This document shows, piece after piece, positions 12,503 to 42,400 of a stretch of DNA of 48,719 nt (position 1 is its first letter; every line of letters starts with the position of its first letter). Source of the DNA: a virus (lineage: Duplodnaviria; Caudoviricetes); the IMG/VR virus record IMGVR_UViG_3300027819_000018, positions 1 through 48,719 of that record. One strand, given 5' to 3'. The notes below the pieces were generated by a model. The model was not told the origin of the DNA. It did not search any database and saw only the letters and a list, made by a program, of their open reading frames with translations. The position numbers and the translations under genes are program-made.

Positions 12503-13510
12503 GTGGTGAGGATGGCAGAGATGGTTGACTCAATTCTAAACGGCAGCAGCCTTCTAATCACGGGGGGAACGGGCTCATTCGGGAATAAATTCATCGAGAT
12601 GGTATATCGGGACTATCATCCTCGACGCATTATCATTTTTTCGCGCGACGAGCTCAAACAGCACATCATGCGCCAGCGTTGGCCGGATAGTGCCGAGTCT
12701 TCTATCAGATATTTTATCGGCGACGTGCGGGACCATCAAAGACTCAAACGTGCTTTCGAGGGCGTTGATGTGGTCATCCATGCTGCGGCACTCAAACAGG
12801 TGCCCGCTTGCGAATATAATCCCTCCGAGGCAGTGCGGACTAACGTGCTCGGGGCGCTGAACGTCATAGAGGCGGCGCTCGACTGCGGGGTCAAGCAAGT
12901 GCTCGCACTCAGTAGCGATAAGGCGACTTCGCCGTATAACCTCTACGGGGCAACCAAGCTGGTCGCCGAAAAGCTGTTTGTGCAGGCCAACTCCTACCGC
13001 GGTGAACACGGGACCCGCTTCGCCTGTGTCAGATATGGGAATGTGGTCGGCTCGCGGGGTTCAGTCGTGCCGCTATTTCGCGAGCAAGCCAAAGCCGGGC
13101 GAATCACCATCACAGATCCCCGAATGACCCGCTTCTGGATAACGCTACCGCAAGCGGCGCAGTTCGTCGTGTCGTGCCTGACCATTATGCAGGGCGGGGA
13201 AGTATTTATCCCCCGCCTGCCTAGCTGCCGGATCGCTGACTTGGCTGAAGCCGTCGCTCCTGGCTGTGGGGTAGAGCATATCGGCATTCGGCCCGGGGAA
13301 AAATTGGCCGAATCCATGCTATCGGAAGACGAGAGTTTTTCCACGGTGGACCTGGGCGACCGCTATGCCATCCTGCCAACACATCCGTGGTGGAGTAATG
13401 GCAATCACGCGGGAGCAAAGCCGGTGCCTGATGGCTGGTGCTATCGCAGTGACCTAAACGATAGGTGGCTGGACGTGGCCGAGTTGAGGAGAATGATCGA
13501 TGCAGGATAG
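12503..13510 (+). CDS. pseB: UDP-N-acetylglucosamine 4,6-dehydratase (inverting)
   Basis: ITGGTGSFG, FSRDELKQ, HAAALKQVPACEYNP, LYGATKL, VRYGNVVGSRGSV, MTRFWITL, GIRPGEKL; start may be 12512 or 12521. Confidence 0.95.
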   Translation: MVRMAEMVDSILNGSSLLITGGTGSFGNKFIEMVYRDYHPRRIIIFSRDELKQHIMRQRWPDSAESSIRYFIGDVRDHQRLKRAFEGVDVVIHAAALKQVPACEYNPSEAVRTNVLGALNVIEAALDCGVKQVLALSSDKATSPYNLYGATKLVAEKLFVQANSYRGEHGTRFACVRYGNVVGSRGSVVPLFREQAKAGRITITDPRMTRFWITLPQAAQFVVSCLTIMQGGEVFIPRLPSCRIADLAEAVAPGCGVEHIGIRPGEKLAESMLSEDESFSTVDLGDRYAILPTHPWWSNGNHAGAKPVPDGWCYRSDLNDRWLDVAELRRMIDAG

Positions 13511-14144: not shown

Positions 14145-15067
14145 GTATCCTGGGAATGGGTTCTATCGGCTGTCGACACGCCGCCAACGTCAAGGCGCTG
14201 GGACACGAGGTGATAGCCTATGACTATAGCATCCAGGTACAGGAAGCCATCAAGCGGGATTACGCGATGTGCGTAACACTGCGGGACGTTTGGACTACGA
14301 AGCCGCAGGCCGTCCTCATCTGCACTCTGCCATCGAGTCACCTGGAATTAGCTTATGAAGCATTCAGGCACGGGTGCCACACCTTCATCGAGAAGCCGCT
14401 AGGGTTGTCTTTGGATGGATGGAAGGAACTGGGGCGAGAGTTTGACAGGGCTGAGTTGGTGGACATGGTAGCGTGTAATTGGCGATGGCACGAAGGGTTG
14501 CTACGTCTGAAAAAGGCGCGAGAACTCGGCTTCCCGCATAACCCGCGATCGCTTACTATATGGCACTATTCCTATCTGCCCGGCTGGGTTAAGGGGCGGA
14601 ATTGGCGCGAGCACTACAGCGCATCGAAGGAGCAAGGCGGGGTGCTGTTTGAGGCCGCTTGGCACCTGGTAGACCTCGCAGTCTGGATGTTCGGCAGCGC
14701 TCACGTTGAGGAAGCGTTTTTAGAGCCGTCCACCCCGCTGGGCCTTGACTGCGATGGCTACGCTGGATTGACTTTGCGACACACGGCCAAGCGTAAAACG
14801 ATTATCGAGACAGACTGGCGCTACAAACAGCGTAGTATGGCGGTCATCGTGGAGGGAGAGAGAGCAGAGAAAATAGCCTGGTATCTACGGGATAGCAAAG
14901 ACTATGACGATAACGAGATGTATAAGGCAGAGATAGCGGAGTTTTTGGGATGCTGCTCACTGAGAGTACCGAGCCCTAACCCCATTAACTCGGCGGTCAA
15001 GACATTACAAATATTATTGGAGGCGAAAACGTGGGAACAACAGCAGCTATCATCGCAGCGCGACTAG
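14135..15067 (+). CDS. Gfo/Idh/MocA family oxidoreductase
   Basis: MRVGILGMGSIGCRH Rossmann motif; HTFIEKPL; GGVL....HLVDLA. Confidence 0.9.
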   Translation: MRVGILGMGSIGCRHAANVKALGHEVIAYDYSIQVQEAIKRDYAMCVTLRDVWTTKPQAVLICTLPSSHLELAYEAFRHGCHTFIEKPLGLSLDGWKELGREFDRAELVDMVACNWRWHEGLLRLKKARELGFPHNPRSLTIWHYSYLPGWVKGRNWREHYSASKEQGGVLFEAAWHLVDLAVWMFGSAHVEEAFLEPSTPLGLDCDGYAGLTLRHTAKRKTIIETDWRYKQRSMAVIVEGERAEKIAWYLRDSKDYDDNEMYKAEIAEFLGCCSLRVPSPNPINSAVKTLQILLEAKTWEQQQLSSQRD

Positions 15068-15735
15068 GGAGCAGCAGGCTCCCAAACAAGGCGTTGGCCG
15101 ACATCAACGGCCATCCTATGCTCTGGCACGTCGTCAACCGTGCCCGGCGTATCCCCGGCGTTGACCAGGTCGTCGTGGCGACCTCGTTTAGCGCGGCCGA
15201 CCAGCGGCTCATTAGCTGGTGCCAGCGCGAGGGCATCCCGGTTTACCGTGGCGGGGCTCACGAGAACGACGTGCTCGGCAGGTATTTCGACGTAGCCACG
15301 CAGCTCGGGGCGGATACCATCGTCAGGCTGACGGGGGATTGTCCGTGTTTTATGCCCGAGATCGGCACCGGAGTTCTTAGGGCCCTCATCGAGCAGGACG
15401 CTTCGTATGCATCGAACGTCGAAAACGACCGGTACATTGATGGGTTCGATTGCGAAGCCTTGACCATGGAGCTCTTGGAACAATCACACTATAAGGCGCT
15501 CAAGCCGGCCGAGCGGGAACACGTCACACTATGGGCACGGAAGCACGCCAAGAAGAAGGCCGACTACGTGCCGGATGTAGTTCTTCCCAAGGTTAAGCTA
15601 TCGGTTGACACGCTAGAAGAGCTGGACCTCGTTCGCGCCATGTTCGCGGACCTGGGGGACGACTTCGGGCTAGCCGAGGTGCTGGCGTGGTGTGAGAAGA
15701 GGGAGGCGAAGGATGACGCAGCCAAAGACGCTTGA
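15031..15735 (+). CDS. SpsF/PseF-like cytidylyltransferase (CMP-nonulosonate synthetase-like)
   Basis: IIAARLGSSRLPNKALADING.PML, DVLGRY, IVRLTGDCP, REHVT, LSVDT. Confidence 0.88.
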   Translation: MGTTAAIIAARLGSSRLPNKALADINGHPMLWHVVNRARRIPGVDQVVVATSFSAADQRLISWCQREGIPVYRGGAHENDVLGRYFDVATQLGADTIVRLTGDCPCFMPEIGTGVLRALIEQDASYASNVENDRYIDGFDCEALTMELLEQSHYKALKPAEREHVTLWARKHAKKKADYVPDVVLPKVKLSVDTLEELDLVRAMFADLGDDFGLAEVLAWCEKREAKDDAAKDA

Positions 15736-17667: not shown

Positions 17668-17669
17668 CC

Positions 17670-17948: not shown

Positions 17949-18214
17949 TGGCCTACCGAGTCCACTACCGCGATCTAGCCAACCATCTAAGCGAGCTAGA
18001 CATAACCGCGACTTGCGCTGATTTGGCGGCCAAACTACGCGCCTACGAGCACACGGACGCGGAATATCGAGAGCGGCTAGCCGAGGCGGTAGAGACGTTG
18101 CCGCCGGGGGCTTGCTGGATAGACGGCCTGGTCGCGTTGTGCGAGGCGCTGAGGGAAGATAACCCGAGGTTCGTGCCGGCGTTGATGATGGAATGGTGTT
18201 TGGAGGATATCTAG
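17948..18214 (+). CDS. Hypothetical protein
   Basis: Coupled ORF; DNPRF motif. Confidence 0.55.
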   Translation: MAYRVHYRDLANHLSELDITATCADLAAKLRAYEHTDAEYRERLAEAVETLPPGACWIDGLVALCEALREDNPRFVPALMMEWCLEDI

Positions 18215-18220
18215 GGAGGG

Positions 18221-19015: not shown

Positions 19016-19257
19016 GGATTCACTCCTTTTGTAAGGTGTCCAACGTAACGATCGACGGAGGCGACCTCGGCATGCTCACCTTCCCGAATGCAAAATGCCG
19101 TTATTGCGGCAGGCTCTATGGGCTAAACGAAGAGGAATTGATGTCACTACCGACACAGATGGCTCGTTGCCCGAATGGCCGCGAGTTATCCTTGCGGGAA
19201 ACGATAGCGGGGCTGATACGGGGGTGCTTCAATTGTTGGGAGGGAAAACAGCGATGA
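19012..19257 (+). CDS. Cys-rich hypothetical protein
   Basis: ATGA overlaps at both ends; CRYCG. Confidence 0.55.
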   Translation: MRIHSFCKVSNVTIDGGDLGMLTFPNAKCRYCGRLYGLNEEELMSLPTQMARCPNGRELSLRETIAGLIRGCFNCWEGKQR

Positions 19258-20303
19258 GCCATATCACGATAGCCGGCCGCCAGATAGGGCCAGGAAACCC
19301 GGTATGGATAGTGGCCGAAATAGGAGCCAACGCCAGAACCTACTATGATGCGGAGCGCCTTATCATCGAAGCGCACGAAGCCGGGGCCGACGCGGTCAAG
19401 GTGCAGGCAATCCGACCAGACGGAATAACCCTCGATTGCGATAACGAGCACTTCCAAATCAAAGACGGGCCCTGGAAGGGGCGCACCCTGTGGGACCTGT
19501 ACGAGGAATGCGCCATGCCGTGGTTATGGTTCGATGGACTAAAGCGAGTGACCGAAGCGCTCGGGATGACGTTCTTTGCGTCGGTGTTCTGCAAAGAGAG
19601 TGTTGACTTCTGTGAGTCGTTGGGGATGCCCGCATACAAGATAGCCAGTTTTGAGCTGGTAGATTTGCCTCTCATTCGTTACGCCGCCAGCAAAGGGCGT
19701 CCGGTGATACTGTCAACGGGGATGGCAACGAAAGAGGAAATCAAGGAAGCGCTATGCCTGTTCAGGGGGCGCTCATCGTCTGAATATGATCCTGTGGCTG
19801 TTCTGCATTGCGTCAGCGCATACCCGGCTAATCCTGTTGATGCAAATCTAGAGAGGATAAGGGCGGATGGCGAGTTCTTTGTGATGGGCCTCTCCGACCA
19901 CACTCTCGGCATAGCCGTGCCCGTGGCCGCAGTGGCGCTCGGAGCCTGCATCATCGAGAAGCACCTGTGCCTGGACCGGAGCGCAGGCGGGCCGGATAGC
20001 GCCTTTTCCTTGGAGCCTGCCGAGTTCAAGGCGATGGTCGATGCGGTTAGGGTGGCAGAGCAGGCGATGGGAGAGGTGAAGTATGGAGCGACGGAATCAG
20101 AGCGAGCCAATTTGCAATTCAGGCGATCGTTATTCGTCGTTGCTGACGTCAGAGCAGGCGAACGATATAGCCCGGAGAATGTGCGCAGCATTAGGCCCGC
20201 ATCTGGCCTACACCCACGATTCTTTGATGAGGTTTGCGGACGCCGTGCGGCAAGAGATGTTGCGCGAGGAACGCCGTTGGGGTGGGAGATGGTAGCGAAG
20301 TAG
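19254..20303 (+). CDS. pseI: Pseudaminic acid synthase-like (NeuB family with SAF domain)
   Basis: IVAEIGAN, ADAVKVQ, YKIASFELVDLPLI, LSTGMA, LHCVSAYPA, GLSDHTLG, IIEKH, GPDSAFSLEP, FRRSLFVV, RSIRP..GLHP. Confidence 0.92.
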   Translation: MSHITIAGRQIGPGNPVWIVAEIGANARTYYDAERLIIEAHEAGADAVKVQAIRPDGITLDCDNEHFQIKDGPWKGRTLWDLYEECAMPWLWFDGLKRVTEALGMTFFASVFCKESVDFCESLGMPAYKIASFELVDLPLIRYAASKGRPVILSTGMATKEEIKEALCLFRGRSSSEYDPVAVLHCVSAYPANPVDANLERIRADGEFFVMGLSDHTLGIAVPVAAVALGACIIEKHLCLDRSAGGPDSAFSLEPAEFKAMVDAVRVAEQAMGEVKYGATESERANLQFRRSLFVVADVRAGERYSPENVRSIRPASGLHPRFFDEVCGRRAARDVARGTPLGWEMVAK

Positions 20304-20354
20304 GCCATTACGCCGAGAGGCGATGAGCGTAGATAGAAGGGGGAAAAGAGGAAA

Positions 20355-22884: not shown

Positions 22885-23314
22885 GCGTCGGCTGGTAGCT
22901 TCCCTTCGGCTGCGCGGACTGAGCCAATATGAGATACACGCGATGTTCGGAAAGTCGGAATTAGCGGGAAGCAAGAACCCCAAGGATGGTAAGCCGTGGT
23001 CTATCGGCACTGTCAACGCCGACTGCCAAGCGCTAGAGCGTCAGTGGCACGCCGAATCCCTGGAGGATACCAACCGGCTCAAAGCCAAAGTGCTAGCCGA
23101 GTTGCGAGAAGCCCGGCGCAAGGCGTGGCAGGACGGCGATCTGAAATGGGTACTGCAATCACTCAAGCAGGAGTGCGAGCTGCTGGGCCTGGATGCCCCG
23201 ACCAAAATAGACATAGAGACCCGCATCCGAATAATGGCCGAGGCCGAGGGGCTGGACCCGGACGAGGTTCTGAAGGAAGCGCAAAGGATAATGAATGCCG
23301 CTCGTAGTCGATAG
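22799..23314 (+). CDS. Terminase small subunit (putative)
   Basis: RRRLVASLRLRGLSQYEI HTH; ELLGLDAPTKID motif; immediately upstream of terL. Confidence 0.75.
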   Translation: MTLNYKGGSPNNRGGSKANRVNFEIIKARRRLVASLRLRGLSQYEIHAMFGKSELAGSKNPKDGKPWSIGTVNADCQALERQWHAESLEDTNRLKAKVLAELREARRKAWQDGDLKWVLQSLKQECELLGLDAPTKIDIETRIRIMAEAEGLDPDEVLKEAQRIMNAARSR

Positions 23315-26914: not shown

Positions 26915-27098
26915 ACTGCCTGCCTATCTGAATGTTTCGGGCGCTCGCATAGTTGATAATCGCTTCGAGCTATCCGTCAAGCTGAATGCCAAACACCCCG
27001 CTCTCTGGCGCGAGTTGTGGTACTGGCTGGACATCAAGCCACGCTGGCTCAAGCCGATAGCTTGGGTTTGGATGATTTGGAGGTTAGGAAGGGGATGA
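26907..27098 (+). CDS. Trp-rich hypothetical protein
   Basis: Overlapping, coupled ORF. Confidence 0.55.
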   Translation: MPKLPAYLNVSGARIVDNRFELSVKLNAKHPALWRELWYWLDIKPRWLKPIAWVWMIWRLGRG

Positions 27099-27631
27099 CG
27101 TGTATTGTTGGACTTGTCGATAATGGCAAGGTTTACGTGGGTGGTGATAGCGCCGGGGTGGCGGGTTGGAACTTGACAGTCCGCGCAGATCAGAAGGTAT
27201 TCAAGAATGGCTCGATGATTATGGGTTTTACATCGTCGTTTAGGATGGGGCAGTTACTGCGTCACGCTTTTACTGTGCCCGATCACGACCCAAGGACTGA
27301 CATTGATAAATACATGGTCACGACATTCATCAATGCAGTCCGTCAGTGCCTCAAGGATGGGGGGATGGCCAGCAAGAGCAATGAGGTAGAGCAAGGGGGC
27401 TGCTTCTTGGTAGGCTACCGGGGGCAGTTATTCGAGATTGATTCCGATTATCAGGTAGGCAAGCCCATTGATGGTTTTGCGGCTGTTGGCTGTGGCGCAC
27501 AGGTAGCACACGGGGCGCTTTATGCTACATCGGAACTGGACCCGAGAAAGCGTGTCTTATTGGCTCTCGAAGCTGCTGAGCGATTTAGTGCCGGGGTGCG
27601 CGGACCGTTCATAGTTGAGGTATCCTCATGA
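27095..27631 (+). CDS. HslV/proteasome-beta-like Ntn-hydrolase peptidase
   Basis: N-terminal MTCIVG (Thr nucleophile), GGDS, KVF, AVGCG...A.GAL, ALEAA. Confidence 0.8.
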   Translation: MTCIVGLVDNGKVYVGGDSAGVAGWNLTVRADQKVFKNGSMIMGFTSSFRMGQLLRHAFTVPDHDPRTDIDKYMVTTFINAVRQCLKDGGMASKSNEVEQGGCFLVGYRGQLFEIDSDYQVGKPIDGFAAVGCGAQVAHGALYATSELDPRKRVLLALEAAERFSAGVRGPFIVEVSS

Positions 27632-29498: not shown

Positions 29499-29521
29499 AG
29501 TTTTTCCGGCCTTTTTTGTTT
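29489..29521 (+). terminator. Intrinsic terminator whose 5' arm is the last repeat
   Basis: AAAGGTCGGAA-GTT-TTCCGGCCTTT followed by TTTGTTT. Confidence 0.7.
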
Positions 29522-29545
29522 GCTCCCGAAAAGGAGGCGGTCAAA

Positions 29546-30817
29546 ATGCCCTACGAGATACGCGAGAACGATGCCAAGGCCGTCAAGTTCGTCGACGGCA
29601 GCCAATCGGAGGTTACTGGCCTTCTGGCTCCTTACGGGGGCTTGTTTAACGGACGGGACCTTGACGGGCAGTTTTTTAGCAAGAACACTGATTTCTGCTT
29701 GAGTTGGTTCGAGGGCGACAGGCCACTACTGTACCATCACGGATTGGATGCAGATGCAGGCGTTTCGGTTATTGGCCGCATCAAGTCTGTCTCTCAGGAT
29801 GACATTGGGCTGTGGATGCGCGCCCAGCTGGATGAGTCCAACAAATACTTCAACGCCATTCAGCAGCTAATCAAGCAGGGCAAGCTCTTCCTGTCTTCCG
29901 GCGCTATGTCCCACCTCGTGCAAGTCAATGGCAAAAGTGGCGAGATACTGCGCTGGCCGCTAGTCGAAGGCAGCACGACCCCCACGCCGAGCAATCTACT
30001 AGCTCACGTTGACCTGGCTACCGCCGAAAAGCGCTTCAAGGCCATCGACACAGCCTTGCCTGAATCGCTCAAGCTCTCCTCGGCCGACATGCCGGAAGAC
30101 GAAGAGATGCCCAGTCGGATGGTTCAGAAAAAGCCAGCCAAGATGATGATGACCAAGCCTCAGATGCGCAAGCTCGCCAAAGAGATGGCTCAGGACATGG
30201 GCGTCGAAATGTCCAGCGACGAAATGGACGCGATGATGGACAAGATGCCCGCCGAGATGGACGAGGCCACGGCCAAAGAGAAGCTACGCGGGATGATGGG
30301 GAAGAAGAAGTCGGTCAAAATGTCGATGACGATGGGTCGACGGATGATGGGCGAAATGGCTGAGCAGATGGGAATGCCGATGTCCGAGTCCGACATGGAC
30401 AGGATGATGGGCCAAATGGGCGATATGTCCGAAATGGACGAGGACCAGGCCAAGGACAAAATGCGGGCGATGTTGCGCCGCGAAATGAACAAATCCGCCA
30501 ACCTACTCGACCTCATCGAAACCACCGAATTTAGCAATGTTCCCCTGGCCGACCAGGCCGAGGGGCTGAACATAATCGCCGCCAGCCTGTTTGAGCGAAC
30601 GAAAGACCTCAATCAGCGGCGCGTCAAAGAAGGGCGGGTATTATCCACCGTCAACCGCAAGCGGCTGCGCGAAAGCATTGCAGCGATGCGGGCGGCTATG
30701 GACGAAACCTGTACCTGGCTTGACAGCACGGAGCCCACGCCGGAAGGCAAGTCGGCAGACGTGCGGCGGCTGCGGACCGAAATCTATCAGACCTACATCG
30801 CGGCAAACGCAAGTTAG
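29546..30817 (+). CDS. HK97-family prohead protease fused to Met-rich scaffold-like region
   Basis: RDLDGQFF, PLLYHHG, IGR, DDIGLW, LSSGA, EGSTTPTP protease motifs; KEGRVLS..N scaffold motif; AGGAGG RBS. Confidence 0.85.
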   Translation: MPYEIRENDAKAVKFVDGSQSEVTGLLAPYGGLFNGRDLDGQFFSKNTDFCLSWFEGDRPLLYHHGLDADAGVSVIGRIKSVSQDDIGLWMRAQLDESNKYFNAIQQLIKQGKLFLSSGAMSHLVQVNGKSGEILRWPLVEGSTTPTPSNLLAHVDLATAEKRFKAIDTALPESLKLSSADMPEDEEMPSRMVQKKPAKMMMTKPQMRKLAKEMAQDMGVEMSSDEMDAMMDKMPAEMDEATAKEKLRGMMGKKKSVKMSMTMGRRMMGEMAEQMGMPMSESDMDRMMGQMGDMSEMDEDQAKDKMRAMLRREMNKSANLLDLIETTEFSNVPLADQAEGLNIIAASLFERTKDLNQRRVKEGRVLSTVNRKRLRESIAAMRAAMDETCTWLDSTEPTPEGKSADVRRLRTEIYQTYIAANAS

Positions 30818-30831
30818 GAGAAAAGCAAACT

Positions 30832-32172
30832 ATGGAAAAAGCACTGAAGGACATCGAAGGGCGGATGGCCGCTCTTCTGAGAGAGTCCGACGAGATAGCT
30901 ACCAAGGGGCTTGAGGGCGACTTCGAGCGACTGAAGACTATCAACGTCGAGATGACCGACCTGAAGGGCAAGAAAGAAACCCTCAAGTCATCCCTGGAAA
31001 ACGCCCAGTGGGCGCGAATGTCGGCGGGAATGCTGCCGCTCACCGGCAACCCCGGCGAAGTCACGGTACAGGGCGTCAAGAAAACCGGCGAGACGGTTAT
31101 CGAGGACCAAGGCAACAACATCCTCATCAACCAGGACGGCGAGGGCCTACTCCCGGCGGAGAAGGTCAAGCTCATCCGCTCGGCGGAGTACAAGTCGGCT
31201 GTCAAGTCCTACATGCGCAAGCTGGGCGAGTGGAATCTCGGCTACGACGCCTTGAAGGTCTTGCAAGAGGGTGCCGACACTTCCGGCGGCTACCTGGTGC
31301 CCGAGGACATGCTCAACCGGCTCATCGCCAAGGAGCCCGCACCGACCACGATAGGCGGGCGCGTGTCCCGGCTGACCACCTCCAAGGACGTGCTGAGTGT
31401 CCCCCGCGTGGTCTACACCACGGACAACCAGTACACCTCGGGCATGCGCGTGACCTGGACCGGCGAGGTCCCGGCGTCCGCGACCACGCACCGAGTTACC
31501 GAGCCTAGCTTCGGGCAGGTTCGTATTCCCATCTTCACGGCCATGATGAGCCTACCGCTCACCAACGACCTGATTGACGATGCGTCCTATCCGCTGATGT
31601 CCTGGTGTACCAGCAAGTTTGAGGAAACTATTCGCTTGCTGCAATCCAACATGATCATCAATGGCGGCGGGGCGACCGAGCCGCAGGGCATTCTCGTCAA
31701 CTCGCAGTTCATCGCCAACGACGTGCATACCGGCACTAGCGGGGCGTTGACCTGGGACGGCATTCTCAACACCGCCTTTGCTCTGCCGGAACAATACGAC
31801 GAGAACGCCGTCTGGGTCATGAACAAGGCTTCCGGGGCGCTGAACCTCTCGAAACTTCAGGATGGCGAGGGTCGGCCTTACTGGTCGATGGGCACCGGGG
31901 ACAGCGGCCTGGTGGGGATGCGCATCAAGCGCGACCTGATCGGCTATCCCGTCATCTTCGACAGCTTCATGCCCAACGTCTCGGCGGGGCTCTACCCCAT
32001 CATCTTCGGGGATCTACGCGGCTACTACCTGGTCAACCGGGCCGCGTTCTCGGTCCAATACCTGCGTGAGCTTTACGCCGAAACCGGCCAGATCGTGCTC
32101 CTGGGCAAGATTCGCTTCGGCGGCCAGCTAGTCGAGGACTACAGAGTCGTCGGCCACGTGGCGAGCGCGTAA
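30832..32172 (+). CDS. Major capsid protein (HK97 fold)
   Basis: SGGYLVPED, WTGE, EPQGI, NAVWVMN, LQDGEGRPYW, LIGYPV, IIFGDL, RFGG. Confidence 0.93.
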   Translation: MEKALKDIEGRMAALLRESDEIATKGLEGDFERLKTINVEMTDLKGKKETLKSSLENAQWARMSAGMLPLTGNPGEVTVQGVKKTGETVIEDQGNNILINQDGEGLLPAEKVKLIRSAEYKSAVKSYMRKLGEWNLGYDALKVLQEGADTSGGYLVPEDMLNRLIAKEPAPTTIGGRVSRLTTSKDVLSVPRVVYTTDNQYTSGMRVTWTGEVPASATTHRVTEPSFGQVRIPIFTAMMSLPLTNDLIDDASYPLMSWCTSKFEETIRLLQSNMIINGGGATEPQGILVNSQFIANDVHTGTSGALTWDGILNTAFALPEQYDENAVWVMNKASGALNLSKLQDGEGRPYWSMGTGDSGLVGMRIKRDLIGYPVIFDSFMPNVSAGLYPIIFGDLRGYYLVNRAAFSVQYLRELYAETGQIVLLGKIRFGGQLVEDYRVVGHVASA

Positions 32173-32196
32173 GGCGCAGAAAGGGAGAATTTGACA

Positions 32197-32652
32197 ATGC
32201 ACAACCTGACTAAAAACGTCCGCATCGACCCGGCGTTCATCAACGCTGTTGCTGGCTCGACGTTTAAGTACTCCGTCGTGTTCGACATGCAGGGGTACGA
32301 GGGGATCGCCGGCATTCTCAACATTGGCGACGTAACCACCGGCGCGGCCTGCCCGTTCTACGCCGAAGGCTCGACCGCGAGTGACGGCACGTTCGTCAGC
32401 TTCTACGGCTCGACGGCTGCCTTCACGGTAGCGGGGGCATCCGGAGATGTGTGGCTCATTTCAGAGGTCTACCGGCCCAACAAGCGCTATGTGCGCTTCG
32501 TGGCTGGCCGGGCCACGGCCAACACCGTAATCAATGGCGGGCTGGCCTTGCGCTATCGGGCCGACGAGCTGCCAGTGGCCGAGTCGACGTCCATCGCCGG
32601 GACCGGCTGGGTCCAGGACTACGCACTGGCGGTCAACGCGACTTCCAGCTAA
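32197..32652 (+). CDS. Capsid decoration/cement-like protein
   Basis: Directly after the MCP; beta-rich; DMQGYEG...KRYVR pattern. Confidence 0.6.
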   Translation: MHNLTKNVRIDPAFINAVAGSTFKYSVVFDMQGYEGIAGILNIGDVTTGAACPFYAEGSTASDGTFVSFYGSTAAFTVAGASGDVWLISEVYRPNKRYVRFVAGRATANTVINGGLALRYRADELPVAESTSIAGTGWVQDYALAVNATSS

Positions 32653-32748
32653 TAGTCGAATTACTCCAACGTCCCCCGGCCAGGCTGGGAGGAATAGAGG
32701 TTGGCGGACTTGGCATTCCGCCAACCTCGTAGCAAAGGAGGTGCCAAA

Positions 32749-33621
32749 TTGAGTTATGTCCCACTCGTTTACAAGACCAGCGGGGGCGATCAACTCACCG
32801 TCGCTAGTGGCGGAGTCCTCGAACTGGAATCCGGCGCAACCCTATCCCTCGATGGGCAGGATATTAGTAGCACTGGAGGCATAGAGGCTTCCAGCGGAAC
32901 CTTTACCGCCGACATCGCGCTCACATCGGGCATCAGCGCGTCGACAGGTATATTCACCGGGGGCGTGCAGCTATCCAGCACGTTGACCGCGGTACACGGC
33001 ACGTTCTCGAGCGGCATCACGGCGACCACCGGGAACTTTTCTGGCGACATAGCCGTAACGTCCGGCATTACTGCCACCACGGGCAACTTCTCCGGGGGTA
33101 TCGCGCTCACCTCGGGAATATCAGGAACTACCGGCAACTTCTCGTCGGGCGCCAGCTTCGGGGGAGCGGTCTCGTTCACCAGTGGCATTAGCGCTACAAC
33201 GGGTAATTTCTCGGCTGGCATCGCCGTATCCTCGGCGGCATCGGTAGCCAACACGTTCACGATGTCTAGCGCGATGGTCCGACCCTTCGAGACGTTCGCC
33301 ACGGGCGTATCTAGCGGGCAGGCCATCAAGACATATGGCGTTTCTCAAATCTGGTCCTGTGGCCTAGAGACCGGGCGGCTCTGGTCGATGGGCGCGGGCG
33401 TGGCCGGCTACGAGAAGTGGATTTACAACGTCGGGGCGGCCTCGACGGCTGCGGCTATCGTGCAGACGAGCGGCAGCGCAGCAATGATCAATGGCACCAA
33501 CACATCGCTCATATTCTCGACCGGCGGGACCAATCGCCAATGGGCGTTCCTGCTCTGCGAGAACTCGACCAACTGGATGCTCTTAGCAGCGTCCACCGAC
33601 GTGACACTCAGCGCATCATAA
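32749..33621 (+). CDS. Head-fiber-like Ser/Thr/Gly-rich repeat protein
   Basis: TTG after AAGGAGGT; N-terminal SYVPLVYKTSGGDQLTVASGG.LELESG resembles head fibers; ~17-aa SGITATTGNFSG repeats. Confidence 0.7.
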   Translation: MSYVPLVYKTSGGDQLTVASGGVLELESGATLSLDGQDISSTGGIEASSGTFTADIALTSGISASTGIFTGGVQLSSTLTAVHGTFSSGITATTGNFSGDIAVTSGITATTGNFSGGIALTSGISGTTGNFSSGASFGGAVSFTSGISATTGNFSAGIAVSSAASVANTFTMSSAMVRPFETFATGVSSGQAIKTYGVSQIWSCGLETGRLWSMGAGVAGYEKWIYNVGAASTAAAIVQTSGSAAMINGTNTSLIFSTGGTNRQWAFLLCENSTNWMLLAASTDVTLSAS

Positions 33622-33704: not shown

Positions 33705-34784
33705 ATGGAAGAAGGGACGACAAGCGGATTGGGTATCGTTTATTTCAGCACTGCCGTCAACAACGCAGGCAGCAGTAAACCCAAACGAAAAAAGGCAAAA
33801 AGAGCGTTGCCGAAAGTAGCGATACCAGAACCATCAGCGGAAGCAGTTGAGTTAGTTCAAGTCAGTGAGAAATTGCCTGTGGTGGCAAACTCAACGGCCG
33901 AAGTACAGGCGATACCGGAAGCAACAGCGACGGCGGCAATCGTACAGGTAGAAGGCGAAGTCAAGGCTGCGGAGACTGTCTCAATCAGCAACGAGACGGC
34001 GACGGTCGCATTCAAGCCGATGACCAAAGAGGAGCTTGAAGCGGCTGCACCAACCCTACCAGTCGAGCAGAAAGCCAAGCGCACCAAAGTGGCGATACTC
34101 GGCTTCACCGACTCATGGAAGCTGGCGCCGTTCCAGGACCCGGAATACGAGATATGGGGCCTCAACGAACTATACCAGTTCATTCCGAGATGGGATAGGT
34201 GGTTTGAGTTGCACAGCAGGCGCGTCTACGAGAATGACCGCAACCGGGTGAGCGACCATATCCAGAAGTTGAAGGCGATGACCTGCCCGGTCTACATGCA
34301 TCAGAAGTGGGACGACATCCCGGCCAGCGTGCCCTATCCGTTGCAGGAAGTGGCGCAGTGCATCCCGAATCCCAGTCCGGGGGCCAAGCCGTATCTGACG
34401 AACACCATATCGTACATGATTGCCTTGGCAATTATCGAGGGGTTCACGGACATCGGAGTGTTCGGCGTGGATATGGCACATTCAACTGAGTACGGCCAAC
34501 AACGCCCAAGCTGCGAGTTCTACGTCGGCATCGCCATGGGCCGCGGTATTCGCGTCTACATCCCGCCTGAAGCGGACCTGCTCAAAACGCCGTTCCTGTA
34601 CGGCTACGAGGAAGAGGCCGCTAACGCCTTCGACGTAAAGCTCAAGGCGCGCAAGGCCGAAATCGAGCAGAAGATAGCGGGCTTGGACAATCAGATCACG
34701 CAACTGGTCGAGGCGCGGGCCCAGTACCGCGGGGCACACCAGGATACCGACTATATGCTCAGCAACTGGAAATCACAGCACTAG
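33705..34784 (+). CDS. Putative sialyl/nonulosonyl-transferase-like glycosyltransferase (CstII/GT42/Maf-like fold)
   Basis: KVAILG...IWGLN...TNTISYMIALAIIEGFTDIGVFGVDM..STEY parallels CstII KVIIAG...VFRCN...TSGVYMCAVAIALGYKEIYLSGIDF (recalled from memory). Confidence 0.7.
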   Translation: MEEGTTSGLGIVYFSTAVNNAGSSKPKRKKAKRALPKVAIPEPSAEAVELVQVSEKLPVVANSTAEVQAIPEATATAAIVQVEGEVKAAETVSISNETATVAFKPMTKEELEAAAPTLPVEQKAKRTKVAILGFTDSWKLAPFQDPEYEIWGLNELYQFIPRWDRWFELHSRRVYENDRNRVSDHIQKLKAMTCPVYMHQKWDDIPASVPYPLQEVAQCIPNPSPGAKPYLTNTISYMIALAIIEGFTDIGVFGVDMAHSTEYGQQRPSCEFYVGIAMGRGIRVYIPPEADLLKTPFLYGYEEEAANAFDVKLKARKAEIEQKIAGLDNQITQLVEARAQYRGAHQDTDYMLSNWKSQH

Positions 34785-34822: not shown

Positions 34823-35530
34823 TTGGCAAATTCCACGGGGTTCGTAGGCACGCAAAAAGTCTGGCAGGAGTGGTACGAGGTATCGACCGGCCTGCATGCC
34901 CGGCTCATCGCTGGGGCGCTCATCGGCCTGACCACCGATGACGAGCTAGTCCAAATCAAGATGACCACAGCGGGCAATATCCACGTCGAAATGCAGCCGA
35001 GCACGGAGAGTGTTGGCTACGTCACCCTCGGGTCCAGCAACAACCACGCGGGACAGGTCGGGGGCAACTCGGCGTTTCCCAGTGCGGCCATTGCGGTGAC
35101 CACCTCAGGAGCTTATTCGAGCGGCGACGTGATGGGCGCCTCGGTGACGTTCTCTGGCTGCTTCCGCTCGACGGACATAATGTCGGGCATCCTCCAAAGC
35201 GTCGTCGTCACCGACCTTTCCACTGCGGCGCAATCGGCTATCGACCTCTGGCTGTTTCAGACCGTCACGACTGGCACGACGTACACCAACGATTCTGCGC
35301 TCACCCTGGCAGACGCGGACATTGCCAAACTGGTAGCCAAGGTCAGCATTTCCAGCGGTGATTACTACCAGTTTGCCAACAACGCCGCGGCGGTAGTCAG
35401 TAATCTCGGTTTGCCGATTCGTGCCACGACGGGCACCGGCTTGACCGGGGTAGCCATCTGCCGTTCGACGGGGCCGCAGTACGCGAGTACCGGGGACCTG
35501 AATGTAACGTTGGGGATTTTGCAGGATTGA
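34823..35530 (+). CDS. Ser/Thr-rich putative virion protein
   Basis: TTG after GGAGGT; beta-rich; AYSSGDVMG; in the morphogenesis operon. Confidence 0.6.
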   Translation: MANSTGFVGTQKVWQEWYEVSTGLHARLIAGALIGLTTDDELVQIKMTTAGNIHVEMQPSTESVGYVTLGSSNNHAGQVGGNSAFPSAAIAVTTSGAYSSGDVMGASVTFSGCFRSTDIMSGILQSVVVTDLSTAAQSAIDLWLFQTVTTGTTYTNDSALTLADADIAKLVAKVSISSGDYYQFANNAAAVVSNLGLPIRATTGTGLTGVAICRSTGPQYASTGDLNVTLGILQD

Positions 35531-35534: not shown

Positions 35535-36773
35535 ATGCGACTACTAACCGAGCACGCCGAAATAGAAGAACTAGGCAACGGCAGAGAGCAGCAGGCCATT
35601 GGCATCGCACCGATAGCTTACCGGCGCAACGGCAGCCTGACGCGTATTGTCAACCAGTTGGGAGCATCGGGCGATCCGTCGCTGCCGCTGGGCGTTTCCG
35701 AGTTGGTGAATTTCCGCGTCCGTGACCGCCTCAGTGGTAACGCTCCCTTGGTGCATTTTGGCAAGGGGCAGAGTCACGTCCGGTTCACCCCGCTGAACAC
35801 CAACAATATCAATGGCGTGGTCGCAGGCAATACTGTCACTTTCCCGAACGCCTGGAACAACGCTGACCTCAGATTGTCCATCGGGGGGCATATCCTGCAC
35901 AAGCGCTGCCCGCTCAGAACGGGACACCCACGCACCTGGAACTTCCGGTTTGACGACCATCAGAATTTCAACTTCGACACGCTCAGTTCGGAGGAGTTTC
36001 GCATCCTGCCGCCGAGTCTACACAGAGGCATAGAAACTATCCCCCTCTCCTGGGTCAAATCTGTGCAAGGCGGCAAGAACATCCTATCCGTGACTCTGCC
36101 CGATGGAGACTTCGCCGGATGGGAGTTGGACCCGACGATTACCCTGCAGCCTGGCTCGGCTGGCATCGATACGCTGATTCAGAGCAATGCGCCGAATAAC
36201 AACTGGGGGGCTTACAACACGCTGGCTATCGGCCAGGTGGGGGTGGGCACTTATCGCGGGCTTATCAAGTTTGACCTGTCTAGCATTCCAAGCGGCGCTC
36301 TTGTCAGTGCGGCTACCCTGTCACTCTACTGTCTGGCCGATGCGTCCACCAACGCGCGTACCTTTCGTGTGTTTCGCCAAAAGCGAGCCTGGACGGAAGG
36401 CACTGGCTCGGGCTCGGCCACTGGCGACGGTGCTACCTGGGATACCTACGACGGTAGTCAAGCCTGGCAAACCGCCGGGGGCTTTGGGGCCAACGATTGC
36501 GAGCAGACCGACATTGGCAGCCGCGATTTCACCGCTTCCGAGACGGTCAACGAGTTCAAGGATTTTGTTCTCATCGCCAGCGCGGTGCAGGCGTGGATCG
36601 CCGGGACGTTTACCAACAACGGAGCCTTGATAAAGCCCGACACCGAGGATAGCGACGAGTACGATTTCGCCAGCTCCGACAACGCCACAGCTGGCAACCG
36701 GCCCAGTCTGGCGGTGGGGTATGTGATGCCTCGGCGCGGCATGTTCCACTTCCAAGGCTGGAGGAGGGTCTAA
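35535..36773 (+). CDS. DNRLRE/CBM96-like domain virion protein
   Basis: DTLIQSNAPNNNWG, RGLIKFDLSSIPSGA.VSAATLSLY, GATW, FASSDNATAGNRPSL. Confidence 0.75.
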   Translation: MRLLTEHAEIEELGNGREQQAIGIAPIAYRRNGSLTRIVNQLGASGDPSLPLGVSELVNFRVRDRLSGNAPLVHFGKGQSHVRFTPLNTNNINGVVAGNTVTFPNAWNNADLRLSIGGHILHKRCPLRTGHPRTWNFRFDDHQNFNFDTLSSEEFRILPPSLHRGIETIPLSWVKSVQGGKNILSVTLPDGDFAGWELDPTITLQPGSAGIDTLIQSNAPNNNWGAYNTLAIGQVGVGTYRGLIKFDLSSIPSGALVSAATLSLYCLADASTNARTFRVFRQKRAWTEGTGSGSATGDGATWDTYDGSQAWQTAGGFGANDCEQTDIGSRDFTASETVNEFKDFVLIASAVQAWIAGTFTNNGALIKPDTEDSDEYDFASSDNATAGNRPSLAVGYVMPRRGMFHFQGWRRV

Positions 36774-37393
36774 TGGCCTACGTCACCGTGCCGGACCTAC
36801 TCAAGTATCTCGGCAGCACCAACACGACCAGCTCCGTCAGCACCGGCGAGTATGAGACTCTCGATGCCTGTGTCAGTGCGGCCCAGCAGGAGATCGACAA
36901 CTACTGCCGCCGCTCCTTCGAGGAAACCACCGGCACGCGCTACTACCGCTCGGACGACCTGGTTGACCTACCCGGCCTGGGCGGCAGCGGCAACGTGCTC
37001 TGGCTGGGCGAGGACTGCCTAGCCGTCGACGCGCTGACCAACGGGGACGAGACGACCCTAACCAGCACTGAGTATTGGTTGGAGCCGCGCAACTCGTCGG
37101 CGCGCGGCAAGCCCTATCAGTATATCAGGCTTAGGACCGGCCAGTCGTGGATCTTCGACACCGACGGGGAGCTCAACGTCGCCGCGTCATGGGGCTACAG
37201 CAGCACTCCGGACGATACGATAGTGCAGCTGACCAAGGAAACGGCAGCTTTTCTGTACCGCAACCGTGATAACCCCGTGTTCGATGTCACGGCCAACCCG
37301 GAGCTCGGGATTATCACCACGCCGAAGGGCATGCCGGCGCACGTCAAGGTGGCGCTCTCGCAGGGCGGCTATCGCAAGAAGAGGATCGTATGA
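36773..37393 (+). CDS. Head-tail adaptor (gp6/gp15-like)
   Basis: MAYVTV.DL..YLG, AA..EIDNYCRRSF, WGYS..PD. Confidence 0.8.
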   Translation: MAYVTVPDLLKYLGSTNTTSSVSTGEYETLDACVSAAQQEIDNYCRRSFEETTGTRYYRSDDLVDLPGLGGSGNVLWLGEDCLAVDALTNGDETTLTSTEYWLEPRNSSARGKPYQYIRLRTGQSWIFDTDGELNVAASWGYSSTPDDTIVQLTKETAAFLYRNRDNPVFDVTANPELGIITTPKGMPAHVKVALSQGGYRKKRIV

Positions 37394-37854: not shown

Positions 37855-38850
37855 ATGGGAGCTTCTGCAGCACTTAGATTGATGCTCTCGACCGATGAAG
37901 GAACCTGGGGCACCGACACGGCGACCACCAGGAAATTGCACGGGCTCACGGACGCATCGCTCAGCGCCAACCAGACGGTCGAAGTCGTGCCGACGGTGGG
38001 CAACTTCGGCCCCGGCACGGTCTCGGCACGAACCGCCCAATCGGGCGAGGGCAGTATCGAGTTCGTGGCAACTTACGAGGAATTGCCCATCATTTACAAC
38101 GGGCTGTTCACGGCCATCGATGCATCGAGCATCACCTCGGGCTCGCCGTACAACTATCCGTACACGGCGCCCAACGCCAGCACGCAGGTGGTCAACAGCT
38201 ATACCATGGAGTTCGGGACCACCGGGCAGTGCTACCAGATGACCGGCAGCGTGTTCAACACCCTGACATTGAAGGGCGAAGCCGGCGGACTCTGGACCGG
38301 CAGTGTTGACGTGCTCGGCAAGCGCGTTGACCCGGCCACGATGACTACCGAAGGCGTCAACCGCGGCGTCAACCCGATTCGCATGGCCGACACGTCGCTG
38401 TACGTCGACGCTTTTAGCACGGGCACTATCGGCACGACGTTGACCAGCGGTACGCTGATCTCGTTCGAGCTTTCCGTCAACCCGAACCGGCACCTCAAGA
38501 CCTTCGCGGGCTCGGAAGCCCCTGCGAGCTGGGGCGATGGCAGGTGGGAAGGCTCACTCAAGACGGTCGTGGAATTTAATAGCTCGGCGAAGGCACTGAT
38601 CGATGAGATGCTGGGCTCCACGGGCGTGCAGCTACAGAAGCAGGTTAGGCTCTACGCCACCGAGGGCAGCAGCGCGAGCGTGCGCAGCGCCACCGTGGAC
38701 TTTGCCGGGGTAGTCTCCGATCCGGTCAAGTTCTTCGACGATCGGGACGGGAACATGACCATCGAAGTCACCTGGCAGGGCAAGTACAGCACGGGCCTGG
38801 GAAATTGGCTCGGAGTCGCCTGTCAGAACGGCACGTCGAGCACAACCTAA
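37855..38850 (+). CDS. Tail tube (major tail) protein, Ser/Thr-rich
   Basis: E.TWGT N-terminal motif; SYTMEFG; position before chaperone and TMP. Confidence 0.75.
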   Translation: MGASAALRLMLSTDEGTWGTDTATTRKLHGLTDASLSANQTVEVVPTVGNFGPGTVSARTAQSGEGSIEFVATYEELPIIYNGLFTAIDASSITSGSPYNYPYTAPNASTQVVNSYTMEFGTTGQCYQMTGSVFNTLTLKGEAGGLWTGSVDVLGKRVDPATMTTEGVNRGVNPIRMADTSLYVDAFSTGTIGTTLTSGTLISFELSVNPNRHLKTFAGSEAPASWGDGRWEGSLKTVVEFNSSAKALIDEMLGSTGVQLQKQVRLYATEGSSASVRSATVDFAGVVSDPVKFFDDRDGNMTIEVTWQGKYSTGLGNWLGVACQNGTSSTT

Positions 38851-39218: not shown

Positions 39219-39406
39219 AGGTCCTGTTGCTGGCTGAAATGGGGTACTGGGGCGGTGACCCCGAGCGGATAGCGGGGCAGGCGTCGGCGCTATGGTTTGA
39301 CCGGGCTATGGCCCTGCAAGAGGCCAGAGCTAGCGCCAAGCCGCAGACGCACGGCGGGGCGGCTACGCAGACTCACGGCGGAGTGCAAAAACAGAGGCTG
39401 ATCTGA
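39149..39406 (+). CDS. -1 frameshift extension of the tail chaperone (gpGT-like)
   Basis: -1 frame open from 39134 to TGA 39404-39406, which overlaps the TMP ATG; PPSERQQLDR...WFDRAMAL...RLI*. Confidence 0.7.
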   Translation, partial: PPSERQQLDRCARGHSKEAPEWVEVLLLAEMGYWGGDPERIAGQASALWFDRAMALQEARASAKPQTHGGAATQTHGGVQKQRLI

Positions 39407-42400
39407 TGGCAGAGAAAATCGAGATATGGATCGAAGGGCATGATGGTCTCTCCAGGGTTGCACAGGGGGCGTCTAAGCAGCTAGGTGTCCTGGAAGGCCA
39501 TAGTCGCAAATCGGCGGCGGGAATGAACCTGATGGCCGAGCACATGGACCACGCTCAGCATAGTATGGCTGGTATGAACCTGATGATGAAGGGGATGAGC
39601 ATGACAATGCTCTCCCTGCCCTTCCTGGCCGTAGCCGGGGGATCGCTCAAATCCGCCGCGGCCTTCGAGCAGACGGCCAACGTCACGCAACAGGTAACGC
39701 ACGCCACTGACGCTCAGCGGATAGCTCTGGAAAAGCTGGGGTTGCAACTAGGCAAGGACACCGTTTTTTCGGCAGGCGAGGCCATGCAGGGAGAGCTTGC
39801 ACTAGCAAAGGCGGGCCTAGACGTTAATGAGGTGATGGCAGCCATGCCGGGCGTCATGGACCTGGCTGCAGCAGGCGAACTAAGTATAGCGGCGGCGGCA
39901 GAAACGGCCGCCACAGCAGTCAACGCCTTCGGGTTGGATGCCAGTAAGACAATGGACGTAGCTAATATGCTGGCAGCCGCAGCCAACGCCTCGTCAGTGG
40001 AAGTCAAAGACTTGCGTGATTCATTCCAAATGGCGAGTGCCGTGGCATCCAAGGCAGGAATCCCCGTTGATGCTTTAACGACTTCACTGGCTTTACTGGG
40101 CAACGCTGGAATAAAGGGCTCGGATGCTGGTACATCCTTTAAGCAGATGCTCCTGGCCCTCCAAGCACCGAGCAAGCAAGCCAAGGGCATTCTCAAAGAA
40201 TTGGGTATCTCGATTTACGATACATCTGGGCGTATGCGTGACCAACGGGATATTATCGACCAGTTCACGAAAGCTACAGGTAAGCTAACTCAGAAGTCGC
40301 GGGATGAAGCGCTGGCGATCATTTTTGGCTCAGATGCCGTGCGGGCAGCCAATATCCTATTGACTGAGGGCGTGGAAAAGTACGACGCCATGTCCAAAGC
40401 AGTCGGCAAAGCCGGGGCAGCGCAGGAAGTGGCCAACGCCCGCATGAAGGGGTTGGCCGGGGCGGTAGAGTACCTGAAGGGCTCGGTGGATTCGTTTCTC
40501 ATCGGGCAGGGGCTTCCCTTCACACAGACTATCGGGGACTGGGCACGTGGCCTAGCCGACTTGATTAATGCATTTGACAAGATCCCGCCATCGGTGCAAC
40601 AGGGATTAGCGGTGATAGTTGGCTTGACCGGTGCACTCCTAGCTACCGGCGGCGTCATCGCCGGGATGATAGCCTCCATAACTATGATCGGTGCGCCAAT
40701 TCTGATGGTGAGCGCGGCCATCGTCGGCTTAGCCACTGCTTGGGCTACGAACTGGAACGGGATGCGGGACCGGACAATAGAAGCAGTCAACGGGATACGC
40801 CCCTACCTCCAAACACTGACGGAATGGCTCGACCGAAACCTTGGCACAGTGCTACAGGTGAGCAGTGTTGCCGTGGGTGCTTGGGCCGCTTTTACTGTGG
40901 GACGCTTTGCCTGGACAGCGGCACAAGCTACAATCCACGCCGCTACAGTCGCCCAAGCGTTCACGGTGACGATGGTGGGCTCCATAGCTTCGGCCATTCC
41001 GGCTATTATTGCGATACTTGCCCCACTACTACCGGCACTCATACTCGTCGGTGCGTGGGTTTACACTCTCAAGACGGCCTGGGACAAGAATTTCCTTGAC
41101 ATTCAAGGCATTACCCAACGCTTTGTGAGCACAATTAAGTACCACTGGCAAGAGTTAATGGCTGATGCAATCAGCATCACACCAATGGTCAAAATTATCT
41201 CGGTTGCTTGGAATAGCGATATGCAGAATCTGATGACCACCGTTCAGACATTTGCTAAGTACGTGGGGGATACCTTGGGGAAGATGCATGACGATGCAGT
41301 GGAAGCACAGACGGGCATCGCTGGCAGTCGTGAATCTGTACTGGGGGGCAAGTACCGCGGGACTGATTTGACAAAACTGAGTCCGTCCCATGGGATTGTA
41401 GCACCTCCTCCCAATTTGTCAGCTTCTCACAAATCAGGAAGAGACACAGCTAAAAGTTTTTGGGATGGATGGCTCGATGAATGGAAACAGGGGCTACCTG
41501 ATTTACAGAAACTGCTAAGAGGTATGACCGGTGATATTAGCGCTTCGCTCAGCCAGAAGGGCGTGTTCTTGACGCAAGAGGACATGGACCGTATTGAACA
41601 GGCGCGGAAGTGGGCCGAGGAATATAAGGAATTTTACCACGGCACGACTGGCGACATATCACTACCCAAGCCGCCTGGCTTAGACATCGATTGGGACGAC
41701 TTACTTAAGAAAGCGAAAAAGACAGCTAAAGAGGCGGGCTTGTCGATGCAGGACTTCACGCGGGCACTCATCGCTACCCATCCGGCTACCCTGGCAGCCG
41801 CCGCAGCGGTCGATACCCTCAAGAGGCGTATTGGGGATATGGGCCTGGCTATCATTGCCAACAAGGACCAGCTCAAAGCCGCTCAAGATGAGTTCGGGCG
41901 TATGGGCGACAAGCTCACTCGCTTGAATGACAAGCTGAGCGTAGCCAAACAGCGATTATCCGACCTGGCTACCCCCCGCCTTACCGGGCAGGGCGCTATG
42001 GATAAACAGATAGCTCAACTGGAGGGCTATCTAAAGCGGGTGGAGCTGGCAAAGCTCACCGGAAAACCGATCGGTGACATTCTCAAACAATTCCCCTCGG
42101 CATTACCTCCCGGCTTCGAGTGGATTTTCAATCTGCCGACTGAGCAAATCGAAGATGCGGTACGTAACCTCTTGCAGCAGATGCAGCTAACCAGGGACAT
42201 TGACTTCGGAGAGCAGTTAGCTAAAATCCGCGAAGCCGCCGAGGGGATCGAGGACGAGATGTCGTTCGATGATGCTCTACGGAGTATCACCAATACGAAG
42301 GGGGAAATAGCTGACCTAACTACCGCTGTCGGCATACAGGAAATAGCGATGCAGGCACAGAAGGAAGTCATGCAAGGGTTGACCGACGAGGGCGAGAGGC

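Follow-up and report, generated by a model that had tools for sequence, protein, structure and literature searches.

What does a gene of no named family do among the head genes of a tailed virus that also carries predicted genes for making and activating a nine-carbon sugar? The window analysed here, that is, the whole stretch of 48,719 nucleotides, is the entire viral record IMGVR_UViG_3300027819_000018 of IMG/VR (48.7 kb, its genes almost all on the + strand), which reads as a tailed virus from its terminase, portal, capsid, adaptor and tail genes. The gene in question, at 33705..34784, encodes a protein of 359 amino acids (aa) with a sialyltransferase-type fold in its structure model. The best explanation that we can offer is that this protein transfers a pseudaminic-acid-type sugar from a cytidine monophosphate (CMP)-activated donor, and that it likely glycosylates a protein of the viral head. 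We hold this statement as a whole with moderate confidence, its chemistry alone with more and the specific acceptor with less, the donor, the acceptor and the role of the C-terminal helix being what we infer.

In a structure search with the model of the protein, two sialyltransferase-type enzymes ranked first, namely the alpha-2,3-sialyltransferase Cst-I of Campylobacter jejuni (2p56; the three values given for the match being 10.7, 156 and 3.5) and the flagellin glycosyltransferase Maf (5mu5; 10.5, 151 and 2.8), followed by an archaeal MptE-type HPPK (8sd5; 9.2, 131 and 2.8) and SteA (9hmy; 9.1, 133 and 3.2). As modelled, the protein displays both the single-domain fold of the sialyltransferases Cst-I and CstII and the fold of the central domain of Maf, and it agrees with the GT42, Maf and GT29 sialyltransferases with which a preliminary description, made from the sequence alone, had proposed to compare it. 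The CstII-like order of motifs pointed out in the same description is likewise reflected in these first ranks, in a weak ranking of PDB sequences and in the alignment of profiles. When the family profile was compared with PDB sequences, CstII, Cst-I and a third CMP-N-acetylneuraminic acid (CMP-Neu5Ac) sialyltransferase came out on top, weakly (E 0.13-0.8), the matching region being YFTNSISYMIALAI..GF.EI..YGVDMA in the family against YFNQRITSGVYMCAVAIALGYKEIYLSGIDFYQ in CstII.

For the comparison of profiles, GT42 and Maf genes were taken from a sample of Campylobacterota genomes and aligned, 12 proteins constituting the GT42 set. With these, hhalign aligned the family over 133 colinear columns (probability 59%, E 9.3e-5), pairing residues G133, S137, N154, E155 and Y230 of our protein with G8, S12, N31, Q32 and Y125 of CstII, as well as N233/T234 with T131/S132, G254 with G152 and D256 with D154. 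The GT42 motifs G8-N-G-P-S12, N31/Q32, T131/S132 and G152-I-D154, all invariant in the 12-sequence alignment, are located in the N-terminal part and bind the donor; the equally invariant Y156, Y162 and H188 are the catalytic residues of CstII. Within the first motif, N9, G10 and P11 of CstII are not kept in the family, which has F-T-D there according to the same 59% alignment. The comparison with the Maf domain (PF01973) reached 4% over 21 columns, and the control comparison of GT42 with Maf, which have a common fold, likewise reached 4%. In a member-by-member scan against Pfam, CST-I was weakly matched by 14 of 113 members (best E 0.0018) and MptE-like by 9 of 113 (best E 0.018). Auxin_BP was matched by more members than CST-I (16 of 113), again weakly (best E 0.007), and these matches were taken as chance. 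The multi-domain architecture of Maf, of about 600 aa or more, is absent from the family, whose proteins span 227-360 aa and consist of the core and one helix. Taken together, the family agrees with GT42 in its fold and, in the GT42 alignment, in half of the motifs of the donor site, and neither the GT42 model nor the catalytic residues make it a member of GT42. It forms a separate family within the same fold class, and by the Maf model it does not belong to Maf either.

The limits of the gene are given by an ATG at 33705 and a stop codon at 34782-34784, with the ribosome-binding site GGAAGGGGAG immediately 5' of the former. A longer mechanical open reading frame (ORF) starts at GTG 33417, its extra part overlapping the gene before it, whose end is at 33621, and the protein collection holds a 351-aa version (P0002) starting 8 codons downstream of the ATG. 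No tandem DNA repeat was found in the gene. The N-terminal arm, residues 1-127, is rich in Ala (17%), Glu (13%) and Val (12%), and its residues 25-33 form the basic patch KPKRKKAKR. Among 112 relatives, the sequence preceding the KVAI strand is 20.5 aa long in the median and 104 aa at most, with 60 aa or more in 14 of them. Judged from these sequences, the arm is an extension specific to one lineage rather than a conserved part of the family. The core contains 18 residues that are invariant among 37 aligned sequences with 40-68% identity to the query (G133, P142, E149, W151, F167, H170, P212, Y230, A242, G254, V255, E262, Q266, P268, E271, G275, P287 and Y299), and A344 in the C-terminal helix is likewise invariant. 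This helix is modelled as a single one of 53 residues (core 184-236, corresponding to protein residues 303-355); its best heptad register has hydrophobic residues at 9 of 16 a/d positions, compared with 1-4 in five other registers and 8 of 15 in the register offset by 3-4 residues, and a tail of at least 54 aa extends beyond the core in 112 of 112 relatives. Most of the anatomy previously proposed for the gene was thereby recovered, including the 359-aa reading frame itself, the low-complexity arm with its basic patch, the catalytic-like core (placed at ~34080-34615, found here as a conserved block at 34086-34610) and the C-terminal part proposed as a coiled coil, found here as a modelled helix with a heptad pattern. 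The arm or the coiled coil had further been suggested to dock on assembling particles; the arm cannot be the docking device of the family because it is not conserved, and the helix is a candidate for that role.

Six of the longer relatives (P0021, P0033, P0044, P0048, P0051 and P0060) carry inteins, each an insertion of about 265 aa whose first residue, a Cys, directly follows GVDMAHD and whose last residues, ...SHN, precede S-E-Y..QRPSCE; weak LAGLIDADG matches were found in 2 of the 6. The insertion site corresponds to 34484|34485 of the window, one residue ahead of the invariant E262 in the most conserved loop, and the gene of the window itself has no intein. Inteins typically occupy functionally critical conserved sites, and their position here fits a location of the loop GVDMAHD-SEY..QRPSCE in the active site.

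The sugar cluster of the window (12503-20303; Table 1) includes a cytidylyltransferase that is predicted from its family to activate the sugar as a CMP ester. From the genes found, the sugar would be of the pseudaminic type, perhaps in a derivative form or perhaps made with the help of host enzymes. This company of genes recurs with the family: in the whole records of the 20 longest among 80 related viral loci (all 17 of at least 35 kb and the next three), CTP_transf_3 was found in 17, including all 7 that are at least 90% complete, and NeuB in 15, including 6 of those 7. Among 50,697 deposited phage records, tblastn with PseI of the window as query matched 3, and the cytidylyltransferase likewise 3, these figures being lower bounds since each comes from a single-query search. 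The enzyme lies at most 2 genes from CTP_transf_3 or NeuB in five loci, and in the genome collection NeuB or a cytidylyltransferase was present within the fetched stretch in 6 of 10 loci of at least 10 kb. Genomic linkage to pathways for pseudaminic (Pse) or legionaminic (Leg) acid, which is a trait of Maf, is thus also a trait of this family. Further, homologs occur in two complete Acidobacteriota chromosomes (L091:9860-11665 and L103:9977-13788) with no phage head genes nearby. One of them has a PMT_2-type glycosyltransferase on one side and a cytidylyltransferase on the other. Upstream of the second homolog are an integrase and an S24 repressor, and after it come a CarboxypepD_reg repeat protein, a cytidylyltransferase and a GNAT acetyltransferase. 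As a cytidylyltransferase stands beside or near these homologs outside head modules, the link between the family and CMP-sugar activation is independent of the phage context.

With respect to the acceptor, the evidence comes from the position of the gene. In the 73 of 80 viral loci in which the ORF caller found the gene, the enzyme is encoded on the strand of the head genes, and a capsid gene lies at most 3 ORFs upstream in 51 of 70 loci, a placement that is the usual one in the family; adaptor or head-completion genes are situated downstream. Capsid proteins at these loci belong to the Pfam types Phage_capsid (29), Phage_capsid_4 (19) and Mu gpT-like (16). In a quick tree of 60 enzymes, from which 13 loci without a single capsid type were left out, the capsid-type label changed 6 times, compared with 27.4 on average and at least 21 after shuffling; therefore, the enzyme and its capsid lineage have mostly been passed on together. 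The ORF directly upstream has a median combined fraction of Ser and Thr (S+T) of 0.236, with at least 0.20 in 48 of 70 cases, whereas other ORFs have a median of 0.133 and reach 0.20 in 161 of 788 (Mann-Whitney p 3e-14); the downstream ORF is less Ser/Thr-rich (at least 0.20 in 28 of 67).

In the window, the upstream neighbour is a 306-aa protein with five [TS]SG[IL]x[AG][ST][ST]G repeats, of the TSGI(S/T)A(S/T)TG type, and an S+T of 0.36 over residues 56-215. Its N-terminus and C-terminal domain are conserved, with only 14 relatives found, and 5 of these 14 are on contigs of 14328, 6427, 5469, 3377 and 2316 bases, sizes shared with contigs that carry enzyme homologs, the identity of these contigs being putative. 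Its structure model matches a beta-solenoid and a C-terminal domain similar to those of phage tailspikes or baseplates. A second candidate is the 153-aa protein encoded after the capsid gene, whose relatives form one cluster and are located between the capsid gene and the homolog of the enzyme in 6 related loci.

Integrating these findings, we propose that late in infection the virus would make a CMP-activated sugar of the pseudaminic type from its own predicted genes, and that the enzyme would bind this donor through its N-terminal Rossmann-like half, using G133, S137, N154, the T/N-S turn and D256. While particles assemble, the sugar would then be passed to Ser or Thr of a protein of the head, the acceptor most likely being the 306-aa repeat protein and otherwise the 153-aa protein or the capsid protein. 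For catalysis, the enzyme may rely on N154, H170 and the polar invariant residues around GVDMA..E262-Y..Q266-R-P-S-C-E271; the base would probably be acidic or a His, with E262, E271 and H170 as the invariant candidates, and the conserved C-terminal helix could oligomerise the enzyme or hold it at its target. As to the wider proposal of a self-contained 'virion sialylation' in many uncultured tailed phages from more than one capsid lineage, which would make a CMP-activated sugar resembling bacterial sialic acids and have Ser/Thr-rich head fibres or decoration proteins coated with it by a dedicated minimal enzyme of sialyltransferase fold, encoded directly behind the capsid gene, we consider the chances to be evenly balanced.

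Several observations weigh against head-protein glycosylation by such an enzyme. The position of CstII Y156 is occupied by Ala (A258) in the family, the hhalign alignment, with a probability of only 59%, ends before CstII Y162 and H188, and the window protein gave no match to PF06002 (CST-I) even at E<=10 and none to PF01973. Regarding the donor, no equivalog of PseC, PseH or PseG was found among the 12 ORFs of the sugar cluster (11926-21272), and the cytidylyltransferase scored 25.9 bits, compared with a PseF cut-off of 205.7; in place of these equivalogs, the cluster has the class-III aminotransferase, the oxidoreductase and the two methyltransferases. Three of the sampled records, 29-60% complete, have no CTP_transf_3, and NeuB is absent from 5 of the 20, one of which is complete and has the cytidylyltransferase gene directly adjoining that of the enzyme. 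Regarding the acceptor, a Ser/Thr-rich composition is missing from 22 of the 70 upstream ORFs, a Ser/Thr-rich neighbour is a correlation and such proteins are in any case common among the structural genes of phages (20% of the other ORFs), and the model of the 306-aa protein is of low confidence, with a pLDDT of 62. Furthermore, the single homolog found in deposited phage genomes, that of Microcystis phage Mvi-Yong1342-1 (PP496355.1 34781-35584; L081:7902-8705), is placed directly before the small terminase gene, outside the head module.

The position of this last homolog would suit an alternative in which the chemistry is the same and the acceptor belongs to the host cell (lipo-oligosaccharide, capsule, flagellin or S-layer), so that the surface of the infected or lysogenic cell is altered, for instance to block superinfection. 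It is established knowledge that the closest solved relatives act on such targets, Cst-I and CstII on lipo-oligosaccharide and Maf on flagellin, and the PMT_2-type membrane glycosyltransferase and the CarboxypepD_reg repeat protein near the Acidobacteriota homologs are cellular surface contexts. Nevertheless, we judge a host acceptor unlikely, given the proximity of the capsid gene on the head-gene strand in 51 of 70 viral loci and the inheritance of the enzyme with the capsid lineage seen in the quick tree; in addition, Pfam and NCBIfam show no membrane or secretion domain, no dedicated membrane-helix predictor having been run. The third rank of an MptE-type protein in the structure search raises the question of an enzyme that is not a glycosyltransferase at all, such as a nucleotide-using pyrophosphokinase of MptE-like fold acting on a small molecule. 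This we regard as very improbable: the top two structural matches are sialyltransferase-type enzymes, the profile comparison prefers GT42 over the PF01973 domain of Maf, the steady partners of the family are CTP_transf_3 and NeuB, and no folate or thiamin gene was named in the family scans of the window and of the neighbour clusters. The smallest likelihood is assigned to a non-catalytic protein of head assembly or decoration that keeps a sialyltransferase-like fold; the head-gene position, the long C-terminal helix and the absence of GT42 Y156 and H188 from the aligned part would agree with it, and against it stand the invariant core residues, many of them polar (E149, H170, E262, Q266, E271, Y230 and Y299), the inteins in the conserved loop, the co-occurrence with sugar-activation genes and the cellular homologs outside head modules. 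Glycosylation of DNA with the sugar, a possibility brought up by a 2026 paper on glycosylated 5-hydroxycytosine, was also considered and was rejected in view of the head-module position of the gene and the lack of a link to DNA-modification genes.

Several known systems resemble the proposed one in part. With Cst-I and CstII (C. jejuni CMP-Neu5Ac sialyltransferases of GT42, PF06002; 2P56, 1RO7/1RO8), the enzyme shares, according to the 59% alignment, a colinear N-terminal half including the Gly-x-x-x-Ser strand, an Asn after strand 2, a T/S-rich turn before a long helix and G-[VI]-D, as well as a predicted CMP-activated nine-carbon donor and a C-terminal helical tail outside the core. Unlike them, it has no Pfam match, an Ala at the Y156 position, no alignable counterparts of Y162 and H188 and a shorter core (~175 aa), and it is encoded in a phage head module instead of a lipo-oligosaccharide locus, with a predicted donor of the pseudaminic type instead of Neu5Ac. 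Maf (PF01973 core, 5MU5) works with Pse/Leg pathways and modifies Ser and Thr residues of a self-assembling surface protein; Maf is most likely what the phage enzyme works like. Conversely, Maf open frames in the Campylobacterota sample are mostly of 570-710 aa with flanking domains, unlike the one domain and helix of our protein, and the profile comparison with Maf covered 21 columns at 4%. The virion glycosyltransferases of mycobacteriophages use ordinary nucleotide-hexose donors and have other folds, whereas the virus of the window brings genes of a nonulosonic-acid donor pathway and an enzyme of sialyltransferase fold. Both have phage-encoded transferases in the structural operon, beside capsid genes; in the mycobacteriophage case, two putative glycosyltransferases suggest capsid glycosylation, according to the accessible part of the report (PMC11256854). 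Similarly, the portions available on FlmG of Caulobacter and relatives describe a cytoplasmic O-glycosylation of flagellin with Pse or Leg (PMC7591256; bioRxiv 10.1101/2022.03.25.485807), in other words, a dedicated protein glycosyltransferase for a structural protein; FlmG belongs to another class of enzyme and, as far as that description goes, has a modular build with a separate substrate-binding part.

Neither a phage-encoded nonulosonate transferase nor nonulosonates on phage capsids were found in the literature, most subscription journals being outside the coverage. Azotobacter phage TayeBlu has a gene annotated as 'alpha-2,3-/2,8-sialyltransferase', for which the available part of the source gives no experiment (PMC12772287). 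What is new here is the phage head-module setting together with a distinct minimal architecture; sialyltransferase-fold enzymes and systems for protein nonulosonylation are known. How immune systems, phages and lectins recognise bacteria is shaped by the nonulosonic acids that flagella, capsules and lipo-oligosaccharides carry. If the proposal is true, it would constitute a new case of virion glycosylation, in which a phage-made nonulosonate is placed on the phage's own head, and a new class of protein nonulosonyl-transferase, compact (~175 aa), protein-directed and with a defined neighbour as candidate substrate, which would add a new surface chemistry of phage particles. Mass spectrometry of virions and a CMP-release assay are possible direct tests of the idea.

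The size of the family gives a further reason to name it. In the protein collection, 612 relatives were found at E<=1e-3, all of them lacking Pfam domains and informative names, and in IMG/VR about 680 stretches match the family motifs, 533 of which were confirmed. The protein of the window had no significant match in Pfam, PHROGs, NCBIfam or PDB sequences: the single-sequence Pfam search yielded weak coiled-coil noise alone, the best PHROGs match was an endonuclease VII (E 0.059) inside the low-complexity arm, the best PDB sequence was NAC1 (E 1.3), and the ESM Atlas search returned unnamed viral clusters and nothing else. That the gene would lack an annotation had been expected from the outset, and indeed no Pfam, PHROG or NCBIfam model exists for the family. 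This large family, with a minimum of 612 relatives, of which about 533 are on viral contigs, has no entry in these databases, so that a name for it would give an annotation to an unknown gene that recurs in phage head modules. The homolog of the Microcystis phage is annotated as 'type 11 methyltransferase', which looks wrong for the modelled fold. All 24 loci of the genome collection come from bacterial metagenome-assembled genomes or genomes, and prophage-like loci occur among the metagenome-assembled ones. The idea of a new viral family of nonulosonyl-transferases therefore stands in regard to the GT42/Maf/GT29 fold, the absence of a family model and the company of CMP-nonulosonate genes, and fails in regard to its being purely viral, given the Acidobacteriota homologs.

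Table 1. Features of the window, with coordinates and the basis of each assignment.
Feature	Position	Strand	Basis or remark
Target gene, sialyltransferase-fold enzyme (modelled), 359 aa	33705..34784	+	ORF, ribosome-binding site, 612 relatives, structure model and fold match
N-terminal arm, residues 1-127	33705..34085	+	Ala/Glu/Val-rich, KPKRKKAKR at residues 25-33
Catalytic-like core, ~175 aa, residues ~128-302	34086..34610	+	conserved in aligned relatives
C-terminal long helix, heptad pattern, residues 303-359	34611..34781	+	all 112 aligned relatives
306-aa Ser/Thr-rich repeat protein, candidate acceptor	32701..33621	+	directly upstream of target
153-aa protein after capsid gene, second candidate acceptor or decoration protein	32191..32652	+	
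235-aa Ser/Thr-rich protein (S+T 0.23)	34823..35530	+	directly downstream of target; no family match
PseB, UDP-GlcNAc 4,6-dehydratase (inverting)	12503..13510	+	TIGR03589, 474.9 bits vs cut-off 407.75
Methyltransferase	13500-14144	+	
GFO/IDH/MocA oxidoreductase	14102-15067	+	
CTP_transf_3 cytidylyltransferase	15031..15735	+	PF02348, E 4e-24; below PseF and KdsB equivalog cut-offs
Class-III (GSA-aminomutase-like) aminotransferase	15692-16978	+	
Methyltransferase	18221-19015	+	
PseI, pseudaminic acid synthase with SAF domain	19095..20303	+	TIGR03586, 393.8 bits vs cut-off 340.25; NeuB, SAF
305-aa ORF without family	20355-21272		
Large terminase	23295-24815		
Portal fused to Mu-F domain	24812-26914		
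HK97-type major capsid protein	30832-32172	+	PF05065, E 1e-43; phrog_10
Head-tail adaptor	36773-37393		
Tail tube	37855-38850		
Tape measure	39406-42993		

Other genes of the head module deserve mention. In the interval between portal and capsid, a 204-aa protein (27017-27631) matches an HslV-family peptidase PHROG (E 1.8e-23), and a weak match to a head-maturation protease was found at 29516-30817. Between the downstream neighbour of the enzyme and the head-tail adaptor, a 412-aa protein (35535-36773) contains a DNRLRE / disaggregatase-repeat / CBM96-like domain, and it may be a carbohydrate-binding decoration protein. Neither a direct terminal repeat nor a tRNA was found in the window. An archaeal virus, as suggested by an MCM domain, an HVO_A0261-like helix-turn-helix (HTH) and the disaggregatase repeat, was rejected in view of the bacterial origin of 24 of 24 genome-collection loci of the enzyme family, and no host is proposed. 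Outside the head module, a 976-aa replication protein (1452-4382) joins a DnaG-type CHC2 zinc finger, a Toprim domain, an MCM P-loop and a C-terminal winged-helix HTH, a fusion that is unusual for a bacterial virus.

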